A stretch of 63,669 bases of DNA, filler included, from Asterionella formosa (GCA_002256025.1; 26 parts of 26 records of this genome joined end to end with filler, not necessarily neighbours in it); one strand, 5' to 3'. Positions 4,923-57,567 are shown, counted from the first letter of the whole stretch. The notes: generated by a model from the sequence alone, not told the origin. Numbers and translations: made by a program.

Positions 4923-5684
4923 TTAAAAATAGGATTTGTCATCCAAGCTTTGCTACTTGACTTGTACACAACTCCAAGGCGGATCAAATCAATGTTTCGA
5001 AAACAACGAGGCTTCTTGGATTTCCCAATTATGAGCGGTTGCAGCTTTTACCCAGCTGCACTGCATGTCAAGGCAAATGTAACTCGATCCTTAGCTAATT
5101 TTCCTCCTTTGCATGATTTTGATACTTGATTGAGAGTTGAATTTGGGAGAGCACAATAAAAGTATTCGGTCTCATCCATGTTGAAAATGTTGGCTGGAGA
5201 ATATCCATCACACAAACTAGCCAAGAAAGCTTTCCATTCTTCAGCCTTATCAATGTCTGCATTCCCAGACTCTCCACAAACAGCATAGGATTTGACATTG
5301 TGTCTCTTCTTCCATTTTTCAAGCCAGCCATTAGATGCCTCAAGATTACGATCTTTCTTAAATGCTTTGGCAATCGACAAAGCTTTGCTTTGTAGGATGT
5401 GTCCACTAATTGGATATCCAGTTGCGCAAGCAGCGCAAAACCATCTCCACAATACTGTGTTGATTTCTGTACCAGTATAAAGGCTAGCCATTTTCATGGA
5501 TCGCATCGATTTTCTTTCCATCAATAAGTCGTCCTGCTTTTTCTTTGCCTTTTTGAACAGTTCCAATGCTTATGCCAAGTTTAAAAGCAACTTCTCTAAC
5601 ACTATTCCCTTCACCAAGAAGCTTTATTGCCGCTAACTTTGTATCAATGGAAACACTTTTACGCTTTAACTTCATTTCCGACAT
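4923..5684 (-). pseudogene. Tigger/pogo transposase (CENP-B-type HTH + DDE_1), frameshifted, with an in-frame stop
   Basis: KRKSVSIDTKLAAIKLL HTH; LWRWF...PISG..LQSKA; ASNGWLEKWKKRH; IFNMDET; GGKLAKDRVT; stop at 5048-5050, then KLQPLIIGKSKKPRCF...KAWMT; frameshift near 5490. Confidence 0.9.
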
Positions 5685-6280
5685 GCTCGTCACAACTCCT
5701 TCAGTTCCCAATGGCGATGATGTCTGAGTCTTGGAGATTGTAATAAGTGAAAGAATTGAAGCAAATGGACAAGTAACAGTTAAGCTTCCTTTCAGTAAAG
5801 TATAACTAAAAATTATTATAAAAGGGTCATGAGCAAGTACTAATGTCACGAGTGGTGATACTACCACCAGATCATTGCCACCGGTACTAAGCAAGATGAT
5901 GCTGTGGTAGGTACTATTCTACTGACACTTCTATTGCTGTGCTTGCGTAAGCATGTATTTTTGTATGCATAAACATGTAAAATGATACTCCCAGTAGAAC
6001 TGAAGATTGTCAGTCCACAGCAGGGATTTGAGATGATCAAAACATGCAAAACAAGGAAAAAACTACTGGCGCAAACTGAGTGCAGACTGTCCGGTGCTCG
6101 TTTCTATCTTATACAGAGGTCAGAATAACCCAGTTTTTCAGCGAAAGTGTATCCAAGTGTATCTAATAGAGGGTGTATCTTATATAGAGGGTCCTTTGCA
6201 AGGATATCCAAATTGAGGGCGCTTCATTGAGAAAAGTGTATTCTTATATAGAGGGTGTATCCTATAGGGAGGTTTCACTG
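4923..6280 (-). mobile_element. pogo/Tigger DNA transposon, 5' part
   Basis: Minus-strand terminus TA|CAGTGAAACCTCCCTATAGGATACACCC (TA at 6281-6282), subterminal repeats of gagggtgtatc, followed by a transposase. Confidence 0.85.
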
Positions 6281-7381
6281 TATCACGCAAAACAGGTAAA
6301 GTAAAACGAAAAAATTCTGTATGTAGTAAAAACGGAGCAAACAAAAATCCACGGTTTGGGGGGGGGGGGGGGGAGGGATTACCACCCCACAAATTGAGNN
6401 NNNNNNNNCCCCCCCCCCCCCCCCCCCCCCCCCCCGCCGCTTTGCAACACCAATCTTGATGACTTCGAAAAAATTAGATCTTCATGGTTTAATTCACTGG
6501 TGAATCAAAAATGATTATTTATTCGTTGAGTAAAGTGCATTGTCTAACATGCACTTAAAACTTTTCGAGTTTAGAGAATATTAAGCAAAGTATGCAACTT
6601 TTGCTTACTATTGCGTACCTTGGTCATTGCCATTTACCTTTTTTATTCCATTGCCCACGCTTTTGACGTTTCCGCGTTTAGACGAATAAATTAAGGTTGC
6701 AGCTCCGCAGTTACACATTGCAAGGTCCGTATTTTCCAAACATTACGTACAACAAAATAAAATAAAAATTAGCTTTCACCAACAGTGCCACTTTGCTGCA
6801 TATGCTTAGATTCAGTCATTGCTCGACTTTGTGGTATGTTCTATATTCACATATGGTAAGGACCTCATTTCTGGAGAGAAGTGGCAATTATCTCTCTAGG
6901 AATCGTAAATATCCAAAAATAGTCAAAATAGGGGGCTACGAATCATTCTAAAAATCTATTAGAGATAACTGCCACTTCCCTCCAGAAGCAAACTCTTGAC
7001 GTTATAGGGATCACGGCTATATACTTTAATCTTCATGAAACCCAACAGATGGCTGTAGAGCAATCCTCCTCCAAAAAGTCGACCCAATCGGCTTTTTCAA
7101 AAGTCGCCAAAATATTGGACTCGGAAGCCAGGGCCGCAAGAACCTTGCTTGCCCAACGCACACAAAGAAACTAGCTACTGGAGTACATCACTCACTGCAT
7201 TGCCGTTAGTCATGATACAGACGATTTTCAAACAGTCGTGAATTGAAGATGTATGGTTACATTGTTACCATAAGGGATCTANNNNNNNNNNNNNNNNNNN
7301 NNNNNNNNNNNNNNNNNNNNNNNNNTTAATTAATTAANNNNNNNNNNNNNNNNNNNNNNNNNNNNNNNNNNNNNNNNNNNN

Positions 7382-9460: not shown

Positions 9461-9844
9461 GGAAGATTCACACTGTAGAATTCAGCACACGTAGTATTAG
9501 TTGATGTTGTAGACACATAATTAAGTCATTGTTGATTGTAGAGATTACAATAGCCTGCCAGATTGGAAATAAAGCACCGTTGGTACTTGTTGAGCATCGT
9601 TGATCATTGCATGTCTCCGTAGTGAATCGAAATTGAGATGTGCCACAATGGCCTTCTCCGTCTCGGAGCAGCTACAAATAGTCTACAGCGATAACTCTAG
9701 CAAGTACAATATAGAAAAAGAACCAGAGGATGAGTAGCTGACAANNNNNNNNNNNNNNNNNNNNNNNNNNNNNNNNNNNNNNNNNNNNTTAATTAATTAA
9801 NNNNNNNNNNNNNNNNNNNNNNNNNNNNNNNNNNNNNNNNNNNN

Positions 9845-10708
9845 GAACATCCCGGCATCCAGCCGACACACAGTGCTACTGCAACACAGTCCCAAATCAC
9901 TGCTGCCAACCGTCTCTTTGACACCTCCCTTGACGCATTCCGCCGTTACTCCCAAATCCGTGAAATTCTCCGACAACAAATTCTAACAGCCATTGACCCA
10001 ACCTACTACAACGTTCTGGAAGATGCTACATTTGGATATGCAGACATCACTGTTCTGACCTTACTTGCTCACTTAGAATCTACATATGCAACATTGAGTG
10101 CGGATGATTTGGAACTCAATCGCATGCACTTGGCCGATGCTTGGACACCAGAGGAACCTATTGAGCATTTATGGATCCGCATCAAACATCTTCGTGCCAT
10201 TGCTGCTGCTGGTGGGGAACCTTTCTCTGACAGTACTGTCATGCGATTGACTCTTTCTGCTTTAGAACAGGCTGGTGTATATTCTCATAGCATTCAAACT
10301 TGGCGTGATCGCGCTGAGCTGGACCGTACATGGGTTAATTTTTGCCCACATTTCATGCATGCTGATAAGGAACGATTGCGCCTTGCCACCGCCACCACTG
10401 CCGGTTATCATGGTGCCCATGCTGCCATTCAAACCAGTGGCCCTCCCCCATTGTCAGCTATTGCTGCCGCTGCTCGTGCTGTCCCTTCTGGATACACTTA
10501 CAACAATGTCCAATTAGGCTATTGTTGGACTCATGGTCTTACCAAAAACCCTGACCATACCAGTGCAACTTGCAATCATCCAGCTTCTGGCCATCAACTC
10601 AATGCCACCCTTGATCGACGTCTGGGTGGCAGCGTCCGTCTTTTCAGTGATGGTCCCCGTCCTACCCGGCCACCCCGTGTTTCACCGCCACCCTCACCAC
10701 TTGCTTGA
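9845..10708 (+). CDS. gag: Ty1/copia Gag (5'-truncated by contig edge), ending at TGA 10706-10708
   Basis: Open from contig edge; AIDPTYY...FGY; WTPEEPIEHLW; zinc knuckle YCWTHGLTKNPDHTSATC. Confidence 0.88.
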   Translation, partial: EHPGIQPTHSATATQSQITAANRLFDTSLDAFRRYSQIREILRQQILTAIDPTYYNVLEDATFGYADITVLTLLAHLESTYATLSADDLELNRMHLADAWTPEEPIEHLWIRIKHLRAIAAAGGEPFSDSTVMRLTLSALEQAGVYSHSIQTWRDRAELDRTWVNFCPHFMHADKERLRLATATTAGYHGAHAAIQTSGPPPLSAIAAAARAVPSGYTYNNVQLGYCWTHGLTKNPDHTSATCNHPASGHQLNATLDRRLGGSVRLFSDGPRPTRPPRVSPPPSPLA

Positions 10709-12203
10709 TGTGGAGGGGAGCAAGTTGCTGTCGATAATACTATTAACACAAACTTATCTCCCATCACTTGTCCCCCCGTCACACTCATTGCTGATTCTGG
10801 TAGTTCTGGAAATTACGCCACTGTTGATTTACCTGTCATCAACAAACGACCTACCACCAACCCTATCACCATTCAACTTCCTAACGGCAACCATGTTAAA
10901 TCTACACATGAGGCCGAATTATCTTTACCTATGCTCTTACCTGCTGCTCGTCATGTACACATTGTCCCTGGTCTACACAATTGCTCTTTATTGAGCATTG
11001 GACAACTATGTGATTCTGGCTACGAGGTACTCTTCACCAAACTACACATGTCTGTCTTATCCGATGGTCATTGCATCCTTCAGGGCCATCGCTCCACCAC
11101 CACTCGATTATGGCATGTCACCACCGCCACGATTGATCCACCATTGCCTACCCCTACCCACTACGCTGCTGCCGCCATTGGCAGTCCCAATGCACCAGCA
11201 CTTGTTGCTTTTGCCCATGCGGCCCTCTTTTCTCCTGTTCTCTCCACTTTGGAAAGCGCATTACTCCATGGGTATCTTGTCAATTTTCCAGGTCTAACCT
11301 TAGCTGCACTACGCAAACATCCCCCTCATTCCATCGCAACCATCAAAGGCCACCTCGATCAAACACGTCAAAACGTACGATCCACACGTGTACCCTCAGC
11401 TATCATTGAGCCTGAACTTGCATCCATTCCTACTACCGATGTGTTGGGTGATGCTGATTTCCACCCTGAGTGTCTTGCAACCCCTACCCACATGTGTTTT
11501 GCGTCCATTATTGCACCCACAGGCCAAATTTACACTGATCAAACCGGAAAATTCATACTCCCCTCCAGCACTGGAAACAACTACATTATGATTTTATATG
11601 ATTATGACAGCAACTACATTTTCGTTCAGCCCTTTCATAACCGAACCGCTTCCTGCCTCCTTGCAGCATATAAAGCATTACATCAACGTTTGTGCAAAGC
11701 TGGCCTACGTCCCAAACTTCAACGCCTTGACAATGAGTGTTCTACACTCCTCAAAGACTTCTTGGACGCCGAAGATATTGACTTTCAGTTGGTCCCGCCG
11801 GCTGTCCATCGTCGCAATGCCGCTGAACGTGCAATTCGCACCTTTCAAAATCATTTCATTGCCGGTCTATGCAGTGTCGACAAACACTTTCCTCTCCACT
11901 TGTGGGACCAACTACTAGTTCAAGCTGAACTTACTCTTAACCTCCTCCGTGGCTCACGCATCAACCCCAAACTGTCTGCTTGGGCACAGGTCAATGGAAC
12001 CTATGATTACAACCGTGTCCCCCTTGCTCCACCTGGCTGTCGGGTCCTTGTTCATGCCAAGCCCCAACACCGCACCACATGGGCTCCGCATGCTCTCGAT
12101 GGTTGGTATGTCGGCCCTGCTGTGGATTCCTATCGCTGCTACCGCATCTGGATGTGGGACACACGTTCAATCAGAATCTGCGATACTGTCTCGTGGTTTC
12201 CAA
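10709..12203 (+). CDS. pol: Ty1/copia Pol (protease + integrase), in frame with gag directly after the TGA
   Basis: Same frame as gag with no further stop: CGGEQVAV...LIADSGSSGNY (protease), LLSIGQLCDSG, IYTDQTGKF, RLDNECS, HRRNAAERAIRTFQNHF; protease-integrase order is the Copia order. Confidence 0.92.
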
Positions 12204-22035: not shown

Positions 22036-22156
22036 NNNNNNNNNNNNNNNNNNNNNNNNNNNNNNNNNNNNNNNNNNNNTTAATTAATTAANNNNNNNNN
22101 NNNNNNNNNNNNNNNNNNNNNNNNNNNNNNNNNNNTCACGGCTCTTCCTGGCCGGC

Positions 22157-22171
22157 TAATTCTATTAAAAC
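22157..22171 (-). promoter_or_regulatory. Putative self-priming PBS of LTR-B (GTTTTAATAGAATTA)
   Basis: Abuts the LTR end ...TTTCAACA; exact reverse complement of LTR segment 22294-22308. Confidence 0.75.
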
Positions 22172-22438
22172 TGTTGAAATTGCGTCCCGAAGCACTCTAT
22201 GCTTTCTTGTATCCTGTAAGGACACGTCAGGGACCAAATAGGCTGTAGATATAACAACGATGTCTCCGTGATCGATTGTAATCGTTCCTAAGAGTTTTAA
22301 TAGAATTATGGGTTTTTTACTGTTGGCGTAGATTGTTTTCGAATTCTCTGGTACCATATTCTTTCTTGATTCATTCGATTCAATATGTAGTAGGTAATTT
22401 ATACCGGGATTTTCTTTCCTAAAATATTTTCTCCAACA
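22172..22438 (-). mobile_element. LTR-B (267 bp, TGTTG...CAACA) nested in the protease region of the Copia copy
   Basis: Homology to the contig-5 Copia stops at ...catgtaca and TGTTGG starts at once (22438); 5-bp terminal inverted repeat. Confidence 0.75.
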
Positions 22439-23781
22439 TGTACATGACGAGCAGCAGGTAATAGCATAGGTAAAGATAATTCGGCCTCATGTGTAGATTT
22501 AACATCATGGTTGCTGTTAGGAAGTTGAATGGTGATAGGGTTGGTGGTAGGTCGTTTGTTGATGACAGGTAAATCAACAGTGGCGTAATTTCCAGAACTA
22601 CCAGAATCAGCAATGAGTGTGACGGGGGGACAAGTGATGGGAGATAAGTTTATGTTAATAGTATTATCGACAGCAAATTGCTCCCCTCCACATCAAGCAA
22701 GTGGTGAAGGTGGCGGTGAAACACAGGGTGGCCGGGTGGGACAGGTACTGTCACTGAAAATACAGACGCTGCCACCCAGATGTCGATCAAGGGTGGCATT
22801 GAGTTGATGGCCAGAAGCTGGATGATTGCAAGTTGCACTGGTACGGTCAGGGTTTTTGGTAAGACCATGAGTCCAGCAATAGCCTAATTGGACATTGTTG
22901 TAAGTGTATCCAGAAGGGACAGCATGAGCAGCTGCAGCAATACCTGGCAATGGGGGAGGGCCACTGGTTTGAATGGCAGCATGGGCACCATGATAACCGG
23001 CAGTGGTGGCGGTGGCAAGGCGCAATCATTCCTTATCAGCATGCATGAAATGCGGGCAAAAATTAACCCATGTACAGTCCATCTCAGCTCAATCACGCCA
23101 AGTTTGAATGCTATGAGAATATACACCAGCCTGATCTAAAGCAGAAAGAGTCAATCGCATGACAGTACTGTCAGAGAAAGGTTCCCCACCAGCATCGGCA
23201 ATGGCACGAAGATGTTTGATGCAGATCCATAAATATTCAATAGGTTCCTCTGGTGTCCAAGCATCGGCCAAGCGCATGTGATTGAGTTCTAAATAATCCA
23301 CACTCAATGTTGCATATGTAGATTCGAACTGAGCAAGCAAGGTCAGAACAGTGATGTCTGCATATCCAAATGTAGCATCTTCCAGAACGTTGTAGTAAGT
23401 TGGGTCAATGGCTGTTAGAATTTGTTGTCGGAGAATTTCACAGATTTGGGAGTAACAGCAGAATGCATCAAGGGAGGTGTCAAAGAGACGGTTGGCAGTA
23501 GTGATTTGGGACTGTGTTGCAGTAGCACTGTGAGGCGGCTGGGTGCCGGGATGTTCGGGTGGTAAAAAGGGTTCACCAGCACATAAAAGATAAGGAGCAG
23601 CAGCCATGACAATACCAAGGAAACCATTGCCACGACCACCACTGGTACAGTGGACAGAGCGAGCGTTGGCAAAGAGTTCCTTGCGAAGGCGGGTTACAGT
23701 GAAGGCTTTAGGTTTGCCCTCGATTGGCTTCAAGAGCAGATGAGGGAATGGGAAAACAGCGGAAACGATTGGAGTTGTCAT
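22439..23781 (-). pseudogene. gag: Decayed copy of the contig-5 Copia gag-protease
   Basis: Colinear with 9845-10958; ATG MTTPIV at 23781; premature stop at 23089; gag TGA retained at 22693-22695. Confidence 0.92.
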
Positions 23782-23888
23782 GGTGCTGGAAGAAGGCCTG
23801 AGAGACAGGGACAGCGAACTGGCAAGCGGTGCTGGACGGTTGATTGTTGAGACCAGTGTCACATGTGCGGACAAGAGAGAGAGAACAG

Positions 23889-23900
23889 ATATTGTAGTTC
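23889..23900 (-). promoter_or_regulatory. Putative self-priming PBS of LTR-A (GAACTACAATAT)
   Basis: Abuts the LTR end ...CTCAACA; exact reverse complement of LTR segment 23932-23943; no TGG-type tRNA PBS. Confidence 0.75.
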
Positions 23901-24067
23901 TGTTGAGGGGAACCTTGTCATGAATAAAGGTGAACTACAATATTATGACTATTCTTTTGCTGTTCCAAGTACAGCGTTGTTAGCACTCACGCATGTATCT
24001 AATCTGGTGGCTGCGCCGGTATGGTTCGTACGGCGCATGTATGGAGCATCATATGCAGATATTAACA
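23901..24067 (-). mobile_element. 5' LTR (LTR-A, 167 bp, TGTT...AACA) of the Copia
   Basis: TGTT/AACA termini, 120 bp upstream of the gag ATG; similar in size to the Copia LTR at 49963-50133. Confidence 0.75.
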
Positions 24068-24152
24068 TGTCTGTCTATATATTCACCCATCAGTTCCATT
24101 TCCTCGTGGATATGAGCGGCTTAATCGAACATTTCCTGTTCTTACATCAACC

Positions 24153-24492
24153 ATGCCAGCTCGCGATAACGACACATTGCTAGCAGCCAAGATTGAAGGC
24201 CTATTGCAGATTCCCAATCAAGAGGAAGTGTTGCTAGTGGTCGTTGTGCTTCTGACGAGATTGGAATCTGACGAATTGCTCCACGATATTTTCGATCGTC
24301 ATGATCACCTGTGTCACTTCATGTCCTTGTTAGTTGCATCCAAGCATGATGTGTTTGTGAGATTCGCCTGCTGTGTGGCCTCCAGATTCAAGCTCCAGAT
24401 GGATTGGAATCAATTGGGACAACAGCTGATGGAACTACTGGCACACCGCACACAAGCACCACTGGCTGACGTTGACATTTGGCTCCTTTCAG
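24153..24492 (+). CDS. Hypothetical protein, N-terminal fragment
   Basis: ATG in caaccATG context, open to the contig edge; no motif recognised. Confidence 0.35.
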
Positions 24493-39541: not shown

Positions 39542-41764
39542 TCAAGGCGTGTCGATTTCATAATTTCGGAGATTCATCACTCGTATGTCTGTTCGTAAAA
39601 ACCGTCGTAGGATTTTTCCCCCTGTGATCACAATACCACGGTAAAGCTAGCACAGTTAACAATACAACTTCAACATAAATATCACATCTCCGGAATCGTG
39701 ATCAATGTCCTTCATTTGTCTTGATTGCTTCGTTTTTTCTCTTGCAGCACCTCACAGGTTGATTGTAGTGTTTAGGCGGTCGCCCGGAGGAGCTGAGGGA
39801 ATTGATTGTGCACAGTGTCCCCGATGTGACACTCAACCTGAGTAGTAACTTTCCAATAGTACCGGTAAGTGACAACAAGCAGACCGGATATTGAAACACA
39901 ACTTTGTCCACCAGAATATAACTCAAGTTTTCCTTTTTCGTATCTCCTCTTTCTTGCAGAGGAGCTATAACGAGAATACGAGAATGGGTTGGTTTGCAAG
40001 AAACTGGTGTAATGAAAATCTAAGAACGATCCTTCAAGGCGGACATTGGCAATCAAACAAGGAACCAATCGTTAACCATTTCAAGCAACGCTACAATCAA
40101 CTGAGCAGCAGGGACAGGGGAAGCAACAAATGAGTAGTTCAATAGACAGGCGTAGTGATGGAGGTGTGAAAAATTGCGATTCGCAGATGGATTCTTGTTC
40201 GGAGATCAATTTTTGAAATTCCATGGCATGCAAATCGCCTAGCAAATGGCTTACGGATCCGTCAGATTGTAAAGTGCCTCAAAACATATGATAGTATCTG
40301 GTTATTAGTTCTATTGTTTGTTATGATTATACATGTTCAATAGTTCACCAACGCAACCAAAAGCACCGCCATTGTCAGTCAGCTGGTTGATTTAACATTG
40401 CTAGTGGTTTTCTCGTGATATATTGTGCTCGAGGGGTATCTTAATGGCCGATTTTTCCAAAATAAGAAAGGAGTAACCTAAAGTAATATAGAATTTGTTG
40501 AGAGGCTCCACTAAAACTTCGGTGAAAGTCGAAAGAGAAGTATTAGCTATAGGGAAAACAGGCTAAAACAACCCGGAAAATACAGATGTTTGCCTACGGC
40601 GAAGGTTGCATGTGGATGTCAGGGTTGGCATGGAGAGATCATAATAGATCTACTCTCAGTTGCTGGAACTTGCTGTGTTTTCTTAAATTACAGTACCACA
40701 TCGAGACCCTCTGTGCAAGTGTGGCAATTGTCAGTCTTTGGTTGATTAATCTCTTCATGGCAACAGTGCAGCAATGTTCCCAGGTCCAGATATTCATGTT
40801 ATCTTTTGCAATTAGGAATGAAAGAGCTATGTATTGGCATTTTTGTTGGATGTTCCAGGCGTGATGATGGCTGCTGTCATCTTCTTGGTTAAGTGGGATT
40901 AGATTATGAATCCATGGGAGGTATCCAGAACTGGAGTTATTTGCTTGCCTGAGTATTTCTATTTATTTTGTGATTGAATTCAGGGTGGATTCCTTTGGTA
41001 GAGGGTTGATTAGTCTCTTGGCTTCAGGAGAGTCCCATTATCTTTTCCTGTTGCTAGATGTCGCTCGTTGTTGCTGCTGAGTTGAGTGGATGATTGTTAC
41101 AGGGGTGATGATGACTCAAATGATGAAACCTCTATCTGGATGATGTTGCTCAGTCCCAAGTCGAAAACTTAGGACAAAAAACAGTAGATAGTTCTGATGA
41201 AACATCAGCTCCCCCTCTAGCTTTCATTCCCTCCATAAAATCATATCTATGATAGCATGCAAATAGGATCAAGGGAATCATACGCTAAGTGGCACAGGAT
41301 TTTCATATATATGATAATTTCTGCATCAAAACTATGATCAAAGTATCCTGTAACAATAATGATTTATTAATATTTAAACAAGCTTGAAGTATTAAGATAA
41401 TAAGAACATTATCATCACACATTGTATATCAACTGATCAACAACATTTCTTATCAATATCATAAACCTTCTCATTTTATTTTCACTTCTTGTGATTGCCA
41501 AAAAAATTATCACTACAACGCATCCTAAAATCAGCTAAACTCCTATGCAGCTACAGTAACAATGAGAAGAATTGACTTGCTAGCTAGTCATGTTACACTG
41601 ACACAACATCACGCCATTCCATTGTATCCTCTTGCTTGTTTCACTTACCACAAATCAAAGCAACNNNNNNNNNNNNNNNNNNNNNNNNNNNNNNNNNNNN
41701 NNNNNNNNTTAATTAATTAANNNNNNNNNNNNNNNNNNNNNNNNNNNNNNNNNNNNNNNNNNNN

Positions 41765-44114
41765 GACAAGATAGACAGACCTGGTGTCATGAGGACACCC
41801 AGATACATATATCTGTCCACAACAGGGAGTGGAAGTCCCTCCAGTTCCAGTCCAGCCACATCTTGTCCAGGGACAAGCGGTTCGGTGGCCGAACCTGGGT
41901 CTGGCGGTAGGAATTCCATCAGCCCGCACTTCCCTATGCCCACACTCATCTCGTTAGCTGTAACCCAGTTGGTAACGTGCGTACAGAACCGTTTGGCCGC
42001 CTCCAGGGAGGGGCAGATTCCGGCCGCATCATCAGCAAAGAGGGTACACCCTACTGTCAGTGTGGAGTTCCGCCATGTGCGACTGTCCCCAGTTGGTACC
42101 AGGGCACCGCTCTCCTCCGTCCCCACTGCCAAGTCATCAATGAAGATGTTGAACAGTATAGGCGAAAGAGGGCAACCCTGCCGCACACCTTGCAGCAGTC
42201 TGCAGGGGTCCGAGTAAAGGGCAGTCAAGCCACCCTCCACTCGTACCCTGATTGTACTGCTGCGATAAAGGGCACGTAGAAAAGCGAGGCAACGTCCCCT
42301 GATCCCAAACCGGGATAGTTTCGCAAAGAGCGCCTCGTGGGGCACCGTATCATATGCCTTCTTGAGGTCTACGAATACCACGTAGGTCGGCTCTCCCACT
42401 ATCCTCCGGCGTTGTATGATTTCCATGACACAGGCCACCTGGGTTACACATTCCTCTCTCTGGCGAAAGCCCGCCTGGGCTCGGCTAAACAGCCCTCGAG
42501 ATTCCGCTTCCACATTTATCCTGGTACCAAGGATCACACACACCAACTTGAGGACAGTGGCCATGAGCGAAATCCCCCGATAGTTGTTCATATCAGCCAA
42601 GTCCCCTTTCTTAGGTATTGAGATGACCAGTGACTCAGCCCATGACTGGGCCACCAGTCCCCTCTCATACGCAAAGTTGAGTAGGGTTCCTAGTGAGTCC
42701 GTCATTGGAGCGGATGGTGGCGGGGTGGTCTCCTACGATGGCTCTTCATCTTCCTCAGGGCAGTCCAAATATCGGAGGTTGTGAAGGGTTCGTCCAGCGA
42801 ACGGATCCCCTCATTTGCCTGTGGGTGTGGGTCAAATTTCTCCCAATATTGGGCCTCCTGGCTATGACCGGTTTCATCTACTGCTAGAGAGGCATAGTGC
42901 GCTCCCCAGGCCTGATGAATATCAGTCAAAGCTGTCAGCAGGCGTCCATCTGGGCCAAGGACCGGTTGGACCCCTGCGATGCTGCTCTTCTGGCGCCATC
43001 CTGCAGTCGCTGAGGCCCACCGCCAATAATGGCGAGGTTTCTCGCGCATATTGACGTGAGCCTCCCTAATTTCCTTATACCATGCCCGCCTACCCGAGAG
43101 GCGGATCACCTTCCGCGCCCTCTCTTTGGCAGCCTTGTACATGTCCCCAAGCCGTGCTACATCTTCACGGTCTCCTCGCGACTCCGCCCTCCGGGTTTCC
43201 CGGAAGATCCTCCTTCGGGTCTCAATCGCCCGACGTACCTGTCCTGTCACTCTTGGTGGGTTTTGTCCCGCCACCCGTTGGTGGAGGTTCAGGTCCTCTG
43301 CCACCTGGTGACATGTTGTAGTGAACTTCTTGGCCATACCATCCAACCTTTCCTGGTGGTAACTGGTGGGGTTTTCAAGTGAATGTGAGCACTCGATTAC
43401 ATCCTCCAGGTCCTCTTCCAGCGAGTCAGCTAGTGGCTGCCAATAGTTACTACTAGCCACGGTTACTTTGAGTTCCTTCTCTTCCATCACAATCCGCCGG
43501 TACAGTGATTCCGGCCGTGGTGGGGCAATCCCCATATCTGGGATTCTGGTAAGCCCAGGTAGGTCCGCAACAACTGGGAAGTGGTCCGAAATATCCCATG
43601 TGTCGAGGACCCTGGCAGGGGGGACAGCCGCCACTGTGTCACCACAATATGTGATGAAATCAATGGCAGGTGTTGGCTGTCCCTCCCGCCGGCTTTGGCG
43701 AGTGGAGGCCCCCCCTCGGATGGGTAACACCCGAAAGGGAAGCCGCCACGGTCCCATCAGAATCTGCAACTCCGTCATCTTCATGTTGAAGTCTCCCATC
43801 ATCACAATGGGATCTTCTGGAAACTCCCGATGCAGAGCGTCCAAGGCTCGGGGCAGGGCCCTGAGCACTCGGATGCGATCCGCTCTGCATGGGACATAAA
43901 TTGTTCCCACGAGAATAGGCCTCAAGAGGGTGGCCCCATAGACTCTCGCAAAAGTCCAAAATGGTGTGGCCTTACCAACTGGGGTACAGTTGAATTTGGT
44001 CGACACCAGTATTGCCACACCTCGCTGCGACGCTGTCAGGTCCCCCATTGCTGTGAGGCAATGGTAACCTGGCAAACGAAGCTGCCAATCCGTTGATCGG
44101 AGCAGCGTCTCCTG
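41765..44114 (-). mobile_element. Non-LTR retrotransposon ORF2 (APE endonuclease + RT), frameshift/deletion near 42700-42740
   Basis: QET, RGVAILV, MGDFN, IDFI, SDHFPV (APE); IPKKGD..NYRGISL, QAGFR, DLKKAYD, GVRQGCPLSP, FADD, YLGV (RT); the expected KAPGxDG motif is missing at the break. Confidence 0.95.
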
Positions 44115-44221
44115 NNNNNNNNNNNNNNNNNNNNNNNNNNNNNNNNNNNNNNNNNNNNTTAATTAATTAANNNNNNNNNNNNNNNNNNNNNNNNNNNNNN
44201 NNNNNNNNNNNNNNCCCCCCG

Positions 44222-44268
<47 letters not shown>

Positions 44269-46663
44269 CTACCCCATCGTCAATGTGCATGTTCCGCCAG
44301 CGTAGCGTTTACACAATACACATGCCGGCATATATATAGCTATACCAAGGAAAAACGACACAACAATGAACGTGATGGCTGGTTGTTGAGGGATACTGGT
44401 ATGTGATATGCATCAATCCATATCACAAATCATATTATGGTGAGCGATGTACATATCAATGCATCCGTATACTTAGATCCTATCCACTGTATAATACTAT
44501 CAAATTTACTGTTGGCTCTTACTGCATACATTAAAAGTCGAATTTATATATTAAGTAACATACTTAATGATTGATTATTTTATTTTCTATGATGTATTGA
44601 TAACACTTGCATACATATTTTATCGTTTTTTATCATTGTATTATTATAACATGATCATATTTTGATCCAAATTATATCATAAACATTTTAAGAAATCATC
44701 ACAGTTCTATGATCAATAATCATAGCTATATGATATACTTTATTCAATATTATGTATCATACTTTGGTGATGTATGCATCGATGTAACCCTATTGTGATA
44801 TCACATTATCATCTTATCAATCATGATGAGATGATTGGGAACTGTAGTATTCTGCATCGTACTACGGAGTATGATATTATAACACGCACTTTAGTAGCTA
44901 AGTCACTCCTGTAATATACACAAGTCAACAGTGCACCTACACACATGCTAATCAGGTTTGAGGCAATTGACAGTGGTTCCAACGAGTGAATGACGATACC
45001 ACGGGTACCAACTTTTCCAGCAGCAAACCGCAATGATGAAGGACACTTGTCCCTATATTGATGAGGATGACACAGACACCGACTTTTCCAGGAGCAAACA
45101 ACAATGAAGAGACACACTTGTCGCTCTATTGATGGTAACAAAGATGCGTACAGGCTCAACAGTGAATACAAGAACATCATACCAATGTAAAAAAGTCGAC
45201 AGTGTGTGTATGCACACGCCAAGCAGGTTTGAGGCAACGGACAGTTCCAACAAGCAAATGACGATACAGATATCAAAATTTTCCTACGAGCAAACAACAA
45301 TGAAGCGAGCGACTTGCTTTCGCTCTCTTGATGATATCAAAGATGCGGACAAGTTCAATAGAAGATACAAGTACATCATGCCAAATGCGGAAACGAGCGA
45401 CATGAACAAGAAATTGTAATCAGAATCATTCTATAACTATAGCTATGTGGATAGTAGTCTGTTACATTTTCGTATCTCCTTTTATGCTGAATCTCAATAG
45501 TAGATGTAGTATAATGTAAGAATATTGAAAATGTCAACGAGAACAAGTAGAATGTGTTTGTTTAAGGGTTGATTGGCAAGATTTCAATGCTGGTGGTCGA
45601 CGAAACCGATTCACAACGTGCGCTGTGTGCGGAACCATTATGAGTTCGAATAATTTCTTCTCTGTAAACTCTTAATTGAATGATTATGAACAAAGGTTCA
45701 CTGCACATGATGATTACTCAAAGATATAATGATCACTTGATCAACAATTGAAGACGTTATCGCAAACAATCATTTCAATTGTCATCGCTAGTATTTCGTT
45801 GTTGTTGCAAAAATCGGAGTGATGAATGATGGAGATGATGATCCAAATTACATTACTTTAGCTGCTACATTACTATCCTACCAAGAAATTCGAATACAGA
45901 AATCTAATAGAAACAATACATATAATAATTAAATATATGTAGTCAAAAGGGTTACTATTTAAATTACAAGGGCATTAAGGTTCCTGCATTTGAACCCCTA
46001 GGCAAAAATTAAAATATTGCTTAGGGTTGCCGAAATTCCCTGGAACTAAGAATTTTATGTGCTAATTTGAATATCAATGATTCAGTTTGAAATATTCAAA
46101 TGAGTGGAAATTTGCGCGTACGTGTATAGATTCCATTTCAAATGCATTAAATATGTATAAATAGATTCTCCATCGCTGAATGTTTTATATTGCTTTTCTA
46201 CCAATAGTAACACCTACTCGTATCAACAAATATGTTTCACATTCACGACCCGGCGGCTCCGAAAAATATTTGAATGTGCATACTGACGGTAGTAACGTAC
46301 TGGTAAGCGTGCACTACCTCGTACTATGACCAATGATGATCAGCTACCTGGTACCAGGTACCGGTTGGTCTACCCGGTACTCGGTATTCCTACTCCGTAC
46401 GGATATGGTTTTCGGATAGGTCTACCCGGTATTTACTATTCCTACTCCGTACGGATACCGGTATACGGGTAGGATCGGCCAACACCCAAGAAAATTGCTT
46501 CATGTGTATCCAGTGTGGCCGGCGTTGGATTGCAAGACCTCGCAAACCGTGCCAATCGAACGGNNNNNNNNNNNNNNNNNNNNNNNNNNNNNNNNNNNNN
46601 NNNNNNNTTAATTAATTAANNNNNNNNNNNNNNNNNNNNNNNNNNNNNNNNNNNNNNNNNNNN

Positions 46664-47689
46664 GATACTTGGCGTATTGCTATTCCTACATCATTATTGG
46701 ATCCTATTATTAATTGGTATCATCAGATGTTAGCTCATGTGGGTATGACAAGATTAAATGCTACAATTGCTACACATTTTTATCACCCTATATTAAAAAC
46801 AAGAGTGGAACATATTGTAAGAGTATGTGAAGCATGTCAACGTACAAAATTACCTGGTACTGGTTTTGGTGAACTTCCACCCAGGAATGCATTATTATTA
46901 CCATGGTCAGAAGTCGCAGTAGATCTAATTGGTCCATGGAAGATAACAGTGGCTGCTCAAACGATTGAATTTCGTGCTCTAACTTGTATTGACACAGTCA
47001 CCAATTTAGCAGAAATTTCACGTATCATCAATAAAACATCAGAATATATTGCAATGAAATTTGAAAATGATTGGTTAGCCAGATATCCCCGTCCAGAACG
47101 TTGTATACATGACAATGGAGGTGAATTTACTGGTGCTCCTTTCTTACACATGTTAATATTGAATGGAATCAAAGATGTGACTACCACAGTAAAGAATCCA
47201 CAAGCAAATGCTATCTGTGAACGTTTCCATCAATCTATCAGCAATAGTCTACGAGTTATGTTAAAGGCTCATCCTCCAATCAATGAATTTCAAGCCCAAA
47301 ATATTGTGGATACATGTTTTGCAGCTGCGTCATATGCAGCTCGAGCTACTATTCATAGTATATTACGTATTTCACCAGGAGCATGGGTTTTCCAACGTGA
47401 TATGATATTAAATATTCCTTTGATTACAGATTTACAATTAATACATCAACGTCGACAGGTGATAATTGACGAACGTTTACGTCGTGCAAATTTCCGTCGT
47501 CGATCTTATGATTACAAAGTGGGTGACGAGATTTTAATATTATTGGATAATCCTACTACTTTGGATGATCGTGGACGAGGTCCTTATACTATTATTCAAG
47601 TACATGCCAATGGTACAGTTACTTTTCAACGCACTATGCATATTACCGAACGAATTAATATTCGTCGTATCAAACCTTTTCATAGGTAA
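46664..47689 (+). CDS. pol: Ty3/gypsy integrase (end of pol)
   Basis: HHCC (WYHQMLAH...CEACQ), AVDLIGPW, HDNGGEF, NPQANAICER, GPY motif; integrase is last in pol. Confidence 0.93.
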   Translation, partial: DTWRIAIPTSLLDPIINWYHQMLAHVGMTRLNATIATHFYHPILKTRVEHIVRVCEACQRTKLPGTGFGELPPRNALLLPWSEVAVDLIGPWKITVAAQTIEFRALTCIDTVTNLAEISRIINKTSEYIAMKFENDWLARYPRPERCIHDNGGEFTGAPFLHMLILNGIKDVTTTVKNPQANAICERFHQSISNSLRVMLKAHPPINEFQAQNIVDTCFAAASYAARATIHSILRISPGAWVFQRDMILNIPLITDLQLIHQRRQVIIDERLRRANFRRRSYDYKVGDEILILLDNPTTLDDRGRGPYTIIQVHANGTVTFQRTMHITERINIRRIKPFHR

Positions 47690-55082: not shown

Positions 55083-55121
55083 GTCTACTAGTTCCTGAGT
55101 CGACGAAGAGCTAGTAGAACC

Positions 55122-56344
55122 ATGGATCCGAAAGTTGTGGAATTGTCTGGAATGACTCAACATGAGTTGGAAACACTCGTAAACGCCGGTATGACAAATA
55201 CAGACAACCTTTCCGTCCTCGAAGAAGCGGACATCGTCCACTTACTTCCCAACTCTTCTATCCTGCTTAGGCGCAAGTTGGCAAGACTTGGGACATTTCT
55301 CGCAAGAGGACATGTCGTAAACGTCCAAACAACTATGCAGAATGTCATGGTGACACTAAGCATGCCCATGGCCACTACGGCACAAGCAGTGGTACCAGCA
55401 GTACCAGCCGTGCCTGTAGACCCTACGCGTGGGGCCCCGAAAATATATGTTGATGCACTCAAGGATTTTTCCGGGGATCCAATTGACTGGGAGGAATGGT
55501 ACATTGGTACAGGTGCAACACTTGGGCAGACGGCATATGCAACACTTTTGACAGATACAGGCAAGCCAGTACCAGCTGATACAGTAGGTATGGCACGTGA
55601 CCTTGAATTATACAACATGCTGAAGAAAGCATTGTATAAGGGGACTGCACATCATATAATTGATGCAACTGGGCTCCAGAGTGGTCATGATGCCTGGACT
55701 GGATTGAAGATGTGGTATGGAAAAGCAGAAATATCAAGGACCCTTATTGATCACTACAGGAATCAACTCAATGAGTTACGACTGTCCAATAAGGTGAAAG
55801 CTAACGAGTACATAAACACGTTCATTCTCTACAGTCGAAAGTTGGAAGATAAACATGAAGGCTACACTGAAGCAACAAAACGGACTAAATTCCTTGATCA
55901 AATTGAGGATAAAGACTATGATGTTTGCGTTCAGAACCTTCGTGGTGACACCAACAAGACTTTTGATGAGTGTGTTCAACGCATTCGGAGCAGAGAACAG
56001 GAATTGGAAAGATTCTCACAAGAGAGTTCCACCAAGGCAAGGCGTGCAACAACTTTTACAAGTAGAGGTGGAGCCACACCTAAATCATCTAAAGACAACC
56101 AAATTCCTTTCCTCCCCACACAACTACTCAATACAATTAAATCTAATTCTATCAAGAAAGATCTATTTAAGTGGAGAAGTGTCTGGAATAATGAAGGAAG
56201 GGCAATTCGTGTCGACGAGTTGACTGGCGCCAATGGAGATGCCAAGAAAGACGACAACTCAGTCGAATCTGACGAGGGATGCCACTCCAAGAACAAGCCA
56301 AAGACAAGAAAGCGCAAGAAGAAGGCTAGAAGGACAAAGACCTC
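55122..56344 (+). CDS. gag: Ty1/copia Gag (CoDi-like), 3'-truncated
   Basis: LKDFSGDPIDWEEW; LYNMLKKA..GTAHH; SGHDAW..L..WYG; YINTF; FLDQIED; 40 bp after the PBS. Confidence 0.8.
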
Positions 56345-57567
56345 NNNNNNNNNNNNNNNNNNNNNNNNNNNNNNNNNNNNNNNNNNNNTTAATTAATTAA
56401 NNNNNNNNNNNNNNNNNNNNNNNNNNNNNNNNNNNNNNNNNNNNGACTCTAAACGATATTGGCGTCGATTGCCTGCCATGTACAGGAGATCTAGAGCACG
56501 AAAGACTTGCTAGCAACAACAAGTAGAGCATCCTCAGATTTCCCATGGTCAATTCTCATTCGCCGCTCTTGATGAAAGTACTGATGCTAGCAGTTAGCTA
56601 AGTATCATCAGCTTTTGAACAAGCATGCTGGTTTTTAACTAATAAACTGATGAAATGATCGTTGACTTCAGAATAACAAGAATAAATTACAACGTACTCA
56701 ACCAACATACCGGTACACGACATGAACATACCATCCTCAACTGGACGGGAAAAAAAAGGACGATTTTCCCCACAGATTTAAAATGCTGGCCCCTACTGAT
56801 CGATCATTTGCATACCGGTATGCTGAAGAAATAACACATCATACGTGCTGTCCGCCCATGTATGTGCAAGTATCATCCTCATGTGTGACTACCGGTACCA
56901 GGTACCGGTACCGGTATGGCACCTACAATTCCAAGGCCGAGGTGCGTACACAGTAAGTACCCTGGTACCAGGTTTTATGTACCCTGGTACCACTTAAAAA
57001 CTGTAAAATAAGCCACCGCTATGACGACTTTTGAACTGTAAGCCACCGCTAAACGGAGTAAACGCACGGTTTGAACTTAGTTTGGAAGATACGTTAATTA
57101 TTGTCACGAAGGAGTTGTTCAGATTTATATATCGAGTAAATACGTACGTACTTGTATTGTTGCATTGTGTAAGTTGTTAACTACTTATTACGGCCCAAAG
57201 GTTGCTGTCGACGCGAAATTGCGAAAAATGGAAAATTTCATGTTTACTCTATTGAGCTGGCATCGTCTTTCTACACGTGCACATGTATTTGGAGAAATTC
57301 TTGCCATAGAATTAATTTAGCATTATTAAATGTGTGTACGACGTCATTGTGCTTTCGAATACATTATGCATCAGAAGAATTCGGTGATGATGCAAGCGTA
57401 TACTGCATCGCGCAAAAAAGGTAAAGTGATACGAAAATAGTTTCTGTAGTATAAACGGAGTAAAAATAATCACGGTTTGGGGGGAAAATATACTCATGTA
57501 TGTATAGAAAAATATGCACTGTAAGCCAGTAACTTCCTCAAATACTTGCAATAAAACGGGAACTTGA

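Follow-up and report, generated by a model that had tools for sequence, protein, structure and literature searches.

A Copia-type retrotransposon in DNA from the diatom Asterionella formosa carries a 12-bp hairpin at the junction of its 5' LTR and untranslated leader, with one arm inside the LTR and the other beginning on the first base after it, and in five other families a matching stem is found at the same place in different letters. We consider self-priming of reverse transcription in the manner of the Tf1 element to be the best reading of the focal lineage, and from comparison of the sequences we would put its probability at about 0.7.

The window, that is, the whole stretch of DNA that was analysed, is 63,669 bases long and contains 25 spacers (44 N + TTAATTAATTAA + 44 N) about 2,460 bases apart, for example at 9745-9844 and 22036-22135, as well as one additional run of 10 N at 6399-6408. 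It consists of about 26 small contigs of ~2.36 kb strung together and is not one genomic stretch. Because the pieces are joined by spacers, adjacent pieces are not neighbours in the genome, nor is it safe to read across a spacer. The focal LTR and leader sit on the contig at 22136-24492, part of which is present in 20 of the 24 listed sequencing runs, and the focal family is found in DNA and RNA runs from at least 16 studies. From the flank inwards, the features of this contig are:

24068..24492, no strand, low-copy flank of the focal insertion (X1 word depth ~8e2-5e3, compared with ~5e5 in the element)
23901..24067, minus strand, 5' LTR of 167 nt, TGTTAAT...CTCAACA, placed by loose contig ends, raised depth and the copies in L003
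23944..23948, minus strand, candidate initiator TCATA, immediately adjoining the primer arm on its 5' side (A of TCA = 23946)
23932..23943, minus strand, arm 1, ATATTGTAGTTC, putative self-primer inside the LTR, reverse complement of 23900-23889 and covarying with arm 2 in six families
23901..23931, minus strand, loop of 31 nt, putative remainder of R-U5
23889..23900, minus strand, arm 2, GAACTACAATAT, putative primer binding site (PBS) from LTR end +1
23782..23888, minus strand, remainder of the 5' untranslated leader, with the gag ATG at 23781
22696..23781, minus strand, decayed gag in two frames with premature stops (tblastn, 90.6% identity to L003 gag, residues 1-350)
22693..22695, minus strand, in-frame TGA between gag and pol, the same codon as at 10706-10708 in the sister copy and in L003
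22439..22692, minus strand, start of pol (protease, DSG motif), 94% identity to L003 pol residues 1-85
22136..22438, no strand, a different, even higher-copy repeat that adjoins the element and is not part of it, with X14 loose ends on both sides of 22438/22439

Features on other contigs of the window are:

9845..12203, plus strand, sister copy: gag from residue 76, in-frame TGA, protease, integrase
41716-44162, minus strand, LINE-like ORF (Exo_endo_phos + RVT_1) on a piece of 56% GC
46616-47686, plus strand, Gypsy-type integrase (Integrase_H2C2)
5051-5918, minus strand, Tc5-type transposase HTH
55092-56393, plus strand, weak Copia gag (Retrotran_gag_2)

The ends of the LTR were placed with evidence from outside the window. 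Contigs (not reads) from four runs were mapped to 22136-24492; such contigs cannot reveal RNA ends. Loose ends of varied sequence fall exactly at 24067 (33 reads in X1, agreement 0.56; one in X14) and exactly at 23901 (seven reads in X3, agreement 0.48; two in X14, agreement 0.67), and word depth over the LTR bins is 2-3x that of the internal part. In X1 the depth is ~4-7e5 inside the element, 1.1-1.4e6 over 23874-24031 and ~8e2-5e3 in the flank at 24111-24492. A metagenome scan with the gag alignment returned full-length copies of the same family (L001-L003, 98-99% gag identity), and in L003 the 5' LTR (at 122) and the 3' LTR (at 5540, start only) open on the same base of the same TGTTAAT, the 3' LTR being preceded by the polypurine-like tract GGTGAGGGTG. 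Given the outside loose ends, the depth and the L003 copies, we take the LTR to be 23901-24067, and arm 2 hence lies on the first base after it. The original prediction had set the LTR ends at these same positions, and the loose ends and full-length copies both agree with it. The window holds no second copy of the focal LTR, because it is a chain of ~2.36-kb contigs.

The LTR termini read TGTTAA...TCAACA in the focal family and TGTTGA...TCAATA in two of its relatives, L005 and L008. Directly before the LTR we found GGTGAGGGTG in L001, L002, L003, L005 and L008 and GTGAGGGTG in L009, and GTGAGGGTG, which resembles a polypurine tract (PPT), precedes the LTR start in L005, L008 and L009. Short inverted repeats at the LTR termini and a polypurine tract ahead of the 3' LTR are both features of the Copia type. 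We also noted contigs that run from the 3' end of pol through the PPT, one LTR and the PBS into gag (L001 435-5837, L002 1292-5809, L005 5367-8089, L009 20-6411). These four element-LTR-element contigs, from different assemblies, may represent a tandem array or a 1-LTR circle, or else an assembler may have circled the repeat.

On the minus strand the order of the junction is TCATA, ATATTGTAGTTC at 23943-23932, 31 nt ending in CCCCTCAACA at 23901, and GAACTACAATAT at 23900-23889. ATATTGTAGTTC is the exact reverse complement of GAACTACAATAT, and GAACTACAATAT begins at LTR end +1, just as had been claimed for two reverse-complementary 12-mers of which the second directly follows the LTR. The accompanying claim that the focal PBS lacks TGG also stands, there being none at or just past the LTR end. 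Allowing up to one mismatch, the two 12-mers are the sole matches in the whole window. RNA folding gives a small inner stem within the loop (ACCUU at 23931-23927 with AAGGU at 23916-23912); its letters are identical in L005, so that it is without covariation. An RNA contig from X15 (a poly(A) metatranscriptome) leaves the window at 23916 and passes into what appears to be a diverged loop and primer arm.

Taken alone, the focal hairpin is only moderately unusual. Hairpins of at least 11 nt with a loop of 15-60 nt occur 0.35 times per 63.7 kb in shuffles, compared with about nine distinct ones (21 listed rows) in the real window. Given that stems of such length are not rare in the window, it is the position of the focal hairpin that counts: no other local stem in the ~400 nt before gag is as long, and its 3' arm opens exactly at LTR end +1. 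Rfam gave no matches over 23700-24200 at E up to 1.

The class of the element is best read from its intact relative L003, whose pol is 1356 aa long and has the DSG protease motif near its start. Pfam models match it at residues 441-497 (SH3_retrovirus, the integrase C-terminus) and at residues 914-1030 (RVT_2, a weak match of 20.8 bits against a cut-off of 31.6), and the SH3 match is also found in the sister copy of the window. L003 pol has 1348 homologues at E <= 1e-10. Among the 120 listed (46-99% identity), many carry precomputed PF07727, their sources name a Ty1/copia-type reverse transcriptase, and the named ones come from the diatoms Cylindrotheca closterium, Fragilaria crotonensis and Fistulifera solaris; of the Atlas rows shown, 10/10 carry RVT_2. 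Because integrase (IN) precedes reverse transcriptase (RT) and RVT_2 relatives lie in diatom genomes, we assign the element to the Copia type; judged by domain order and homology, it is a diatom Ty1/Copia-type retrotransposon. The original prediction had called it Copia, and the position of SH3 before RVT_2 in L003 together with the relatives that carry PF07727 and are named from diatom genomes bears this out. We also considered membership in the Tf1/sushi group (Ty3/Gypsy chromoviruses) and rejected it, since IN precedes RT, the RT is RVT_2-like and L003 pol has no Chromo match. The gag protein has 21 homologues, and a Pfam search with the focal gag gave no match.

In the focal copy gag and pol are on the minus strand in the same frame with one TGA between them (22693-22695), and the same arrangement is seen on the plus strand of the sister copy (10706-10708), in L003 (1522-1524), in L008 (1372-1374) and in L006 (1223-1225). 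In the three intact families the frame after the TGA is open to the end of the contig, and GGAGGG or AGAGGG stands 3 nt after the TGA. This conserved layout suggests that gag-pol may be expressed by stop-codon read-through. The self-primed element Tj1 of Schizosaccharomyces japonicus likewise requires a stop at the end of gag (PMC7175516, PMC4600332), and in the diatom CoDi elements gag and pol are separated by one stop or frameshift or by none (PMC2806351).

The sister copy, which begins inside gag and is without LTR or PBS, is the only further member of the focal family in the window. It has 95% DNA identity to 23556-22439 and 98% identity to L003 gag and pol. Between the focal copy and the sister (22439-23781 and 9845-10959) there are 52 differences in 1118 aligned positions, and the focal copy has new stop codons. 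Transitions predominate among the copies in the runs (places in X1: A>G 26, T>C 16, G>A 15, C>T 12). A 31-nt stretch between PBS and gag in L001, L002 and L003 is missing from the focal leader (23859-23860), and several run joints skip parts of 23659-23882, so that the length of the leader varies between copies. The similarity of the focal copy to the sister ends at 22439, depth is raised over 22136-22451, and the repeat at 22136-22438 has no match in Pfam; the junction at 22438/22439 is either a nested insertion or a chimeric contig.

Relatives for comparison came from several scans. The metagenome scan with the gag alignment also gave L005 (46% gag identity) and L007 (44%). Among contigs of prokaryote genomes, the scan with the pol alignment gave seven loci on misbinned contigs of metagenome-assembled genomes (MAGs) and the scan with the gag alignment gave no relatives; L008, L009 and L012 (34-36% gag identity) are MAG contigs that hold an LTR-leader junction. 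Viral contigs scanned with the gag alignment, the pol alignment and both gave no relatives. The MAGs behind L008, L009, L010, L012 and L013 contain no further elements, and there is no second copy of the L012 LTR in its MAG. Diatom Copia elements thus turn up in bins labelled Gloeobacterales, Variovorax, Krumholzibacteriia (a 162-kb contig), Nitrospirae and others (L008-L014), and this placement in bacterial MAGs is eukaryote contamination of prokaryote bins. A protein from NCBI labelled Marinobacter shengliensis (P0105) is also among the diatom Copia homologues.

The junction hairpins of the six families with a recognisable LTR-leader junction are:

Focal family (window): arms ATATTGTAGTTC / GAACTACAATAT, stem 12 bp, loop 31 nt
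L005: arms ATTTACTAGCAC / GTGCTAGTAAAT, stem 12 bp, loop 30 nt
L007: arms TTTACGTAACTC / GAGTTACGTAAA, stem 12 bp, loop 28 nt
L009: arms CTTACTAGCAAA / TTTGCTAGTAAG, stem 12 bp, loop 31 nt
L012: stem 13 bp, loop 46 nt
L008: stem 9 bp contiguous, loop 40 nt

In 6/6 families arm 2 begins directly after the LTR terminus TCAAYA, the inverse of the LTR start TGTTGA. Pairs were counted by a script anchored on the LTR end (a MAFFT alignment of the leaders gapped arm 1 in the L007 register), and across 12 positions in six families 70 of the 72 cells are Watson-Crick in register, the exceptions being an A-C and a T-G, both in L008. At 11 of the 12 pairs there are at least two Watson-Crick pair types, and position 13 is unpaired in five of the six families. 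When arm 1 was slid by 1-4 nt as a control, only 15-25 of the 72 cells were Watson-Crick, and when it was set against the arm 2 of another family it made 1-9 of 12 pairs, compared with 10-12 of 12 against its own. The junction stem is the longest hairpin in each upstream window of ~250-400 nt and is present in the minimum-free-energy fold of all six leaders, with z-scores of -1.7 to -4.8 and 0-12 of 200 shuffles folding equally well. Compensatory change between the two 12-mers is what the original prediction had proposed looking for, and such changes keep the 12-bp pairing in the five other families. Based on this covariation across six families, we think it nearly certain that the sequences preserve a primer/PBS duplex that is selected or mechanistically maintained.

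The count of six leaves out L004, L006, L010, L011, L013 and L014, which have no recognisable LTR-leader junction. Upstream of gag, L006 offers only 145 nt and L010 only 171 nt, with neither terminus nor hairpin there, and with so short a stretch they are uninformative, not supportive. In the window, L001, L002 (twice) and L003 both arms are identical, and since these copies of one family are ~97% alike overall, identical arms there add little. Independent copies confirm the LTR end in the focal family only; in the five relatives it is the conserved TCAAYA terminus that places it. In L008 the LTR start is confirmed (1-141 = 5312-5452), and in L005 and L009 the start was set from the conserved GTGAGGGTG.

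The PBS arms are on average 38% alike between families in pairwise comparison, compared with 61% for the last 12 nt of the LTR. The arms start with GAA, GTG, GAG, TTT, GAC and GAT. A tRNA-primed element with a conserved TGG PBS was therefore rejected as a description of these families, with TGG at the start of 0/6 arms and identity between families at that 38%. ARAGORN found no tRNA genes in the window or in the ten loci scanned. Because none of the six opens with TGG, the arms differ between families and each matches its own LTR, a tRNA primer is unlikely.

A candidate for the start of transcription lies next to the primer arm. TCATA is found 0-1 nt 5' of arm 1 in five of the six families, within LTR sequence that otherwise differs, and L008 has TCACTTTA in its place. 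The pattern TCATAATN{10,13}CACC gave no matches; the real spacer is 9-10 nt. Published initiator forms are a general consensus, BBCA+1BW (PMC5287114), and an oomycete form, YCAYTYY (PMC3599244). TCATA fits the general initiator forms with the A as +1, and we treat it as a candidate start only. Depth in the RNA run is 396 over 23874-23952 compared with 75 over 23953-24031, values that derive from contigs and are no reliable guide to the start site. If the A of TCA is the start, the RNA would begin with AUA followed by arm 1, R-U5 would be ~46 nt and strong-stop DNA ~31 nt, and the primer arm would be nucleotides 4-15 of the RNA, compared with 1-12 in Tf1.

We propose that priming would proceed as follows. 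Transcription would begin in the LTR at or just before arm 1 (candidate 23946), and the 12 nt of arm 1 would fold back over the loop of ~30 nt and pair with the 12 nt after the LTR. The RNase H of the element would then cut after arm 1, as in Tf1, leaving a 3'-OH opposite the first base after the LTR, and extension would start by copying the last base of the LTR. Given that the 3' end of arm 1 lies opposite LTR end +1, such extension would be exactly what regeneration of the LTR end needs. Minus-strand strong-stop DNA would be only ~31 nt and would then transfer to the 3' LTR, and the PBS would be recopied from the primer in each cycle, as in elements primed by a tRNA. In Tf1, the PBS of new copies reportedly inherits the sequence of the RNA 5' end, as Levin is said to have described in 1995. 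Recopying of this kind would explain why the arms pair perfectly within families and drift freely between them.

Other explanations of the hairpin have to be weighed against this one. The duplex could be real and selected and still not be the primer, acting as a leader structure (in packaging, dimerisation, translation control or presentation of the PBS) with a host RNA priming at or near the site. Retroviral U5-IR and PBS stems are reportedly accessory structures, as Lin and Levin are said to have shown in 1998, and the RNA start of the focal element is itself a prediction; moreover, the Copia elements called GalEa in fungi have a conserved hairpin at the PBS position with a role that their description leaves unproven (PMC5445492). 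A host primer would, however, have to pair with 12-nt sites as different between families as those above, none of them with TGG, and Rfam recognised no known structure. The 3' end of arm 1 is exactly opposite LTR end +1 in 6/6 families, a placement that a primer must have and that a stem for packaging or dimerisation need not, and we regard a leader structure primed from outside as unlikely.

Similarly improbable, in our view, is self-priming by another route, in which arm 1 of a second co-packaged RNA pairs in trans, or the primer is an RNA 3' end just after arm 1 of the 3' LTR, with no cut of the duplex by RNase H. Since arm 1 is part of the LTR, a full-length transcript carries it at both ends, and pairing in cis and in trans fits alike; nevertheless, a loop that is short and varies fairly little (28-46 nt), together with favourable intramolecular folding, suggests fold-back in cis. 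A polyadenylated 3' end cannot prime. Tf1 is a worked precedent for the cis route (PMC7175516, PMC4600332). The remaining explanation, a chance inverted repeat or a misplaced LTR end with an ordinary tRNA or half-tRNA PBS elsewhere, might draw on the surplus of hairpins in the window over the shuffles and on the lack of a second LTR there, but it is close to refuted: the LTR ends are confirmed from outside the window, no TGG follows the LTR, and the in-register stem is found in different letters in 6/6 families with a recognisable junction. Gag identities of 34-46% argue against the related loci being copies of one family.

Fold-back self-priming as we read it in the focal lineage has published counterparts. 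Among Ty3/Gypsy elements these are Tf1 and Tf2 of Schizosaccharomyces pombe together with the Tf1/sushi group, to which Tj1 of S. japonicus belongs; the mechanism has been proven for Tf1, and the group has been proposed to use it (PMC7175516, PMC4600332). As in Tf1, the PBS right after the 5' LTR pairs with a short stretch near the start of the LTR-derived RNA (11 nt in Tf1, 12 here), making a fold-back duplex with no tRNA PBS (PMC7175516, PMC4600332). Unlike Tf1, the focal element has the Copia order with IN before RT and an RVT_2-type RT, and phylogenetically it is no relative of Tf1; in the diatom families the loop spans only 28-46 nt, implying a very short R-U5, and the focal primer arm may start 3 nt downstream of the transcription start, where that of Tf1 begins at +1. 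Cleavage and priming are proven for Tf1, whereas for the diatom element they are predicted from its sequence.

Within Copia, self-priming has been predicted for the plant Ty1/copia TAR lineage (Houba, Osr-1), where an element is taken to have a self-primer if at least 10 bp of its 5' LTR can pair with a site that starts 0-5 bp past the LTR (PMC6317226, Neumann et al. 2019). We found a complement of this length and position in the focal family, L005, L007, L009 and L012, and 9 contiguous bp in L008. The focal element thus resembles the plant TAR elements both in this property and in belonging to the Copia superfamily (PMC6317226); the hosts differ, being diatoms in one case and green plants in the other, and the likeness is to the published description, not to TAR sequences. 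The fungal GalEa elements have a Conserved Hairpin Site at the position of the PBS and no tRNA-complementary PBS, and they share a major Copia branch with diatom CoDi-like and Ty elements (PMC5445492). Both of their arms are described as lying downstream of the LTR, the first motif being a 9-bp palindrome that includes the last LTR base, and no U5 complement is reported there (PMC5445492). A GalEa-type Conserved Hairpin Site was rejected for the diatom families, whose arm 1 is inside the LTR, 28-46 nt from its end, and whose arm 2 is no palindrome. The CoDi elements of Maumus et al. (2009) have diatom hosts and the order PR-IN-RT-RH, as here, and the main text of that paper contains nothing on primer sites (PMC2806351).

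The novelty implied by the original prediction is smaller than it seemed, since self-priming had already been predicted in the plant Copia TAR lineage (PMC6317226). The mechanism itself is known and was already predicted in another Copia lineage. For diatoms we found no published self-priming claim; repeat-database notes and journal supplements may hold one.

A wider proposal, on which we are evenly balanced, is that a whole clade of diatom Copia elements does without host tRNA primers. Each family would have a private 12-nt self-primer, located 28-46 nt from the end of the LTR and beginning ~3 nt past a conserved TCATA initiator; R-U5 and strong-stop DNA (~30-45 nt) would be among the shortest known, and every cycle would write the PBS anew from the LTR. 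Self-priming would then have arisen here separately from the Tf1/sushi Gypsy elements and the plant TAR Copia elements, on a deep Copia branch shared with the PBS-less fungal GalEa, and would be combined with read-through of a TGA between gag and pol.

These predictions matter for how diatom genomes are annotated and understood. The pipeline used for Cyclotella cryptica, for example, filters LTR elements with LTRdigest for PPT and PBS (PMC7466962). Standard LTR pipelines discard elements that lack a tRNA-complementary PBS, and a diatom lineage that self-primes could therefore be under-annotated. The focal family is very abundant (X1 word depth ~5e5 compared with ~2e3 in the flank), and the replication mode of so abundant a family bears on the dynamics of diatom genomes. 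The six covarying primer/PBS pairs are a natural, ready-made mutational series, and the strong-stop DNA is predicted to be unusually short. If our reading is correct, priming of the Tf1 type would extend to a third, distant lineage, and it would add to the picture of a deep Copia branch (Ty, GalEa, CoDi-like) that uses unorthodox priming.
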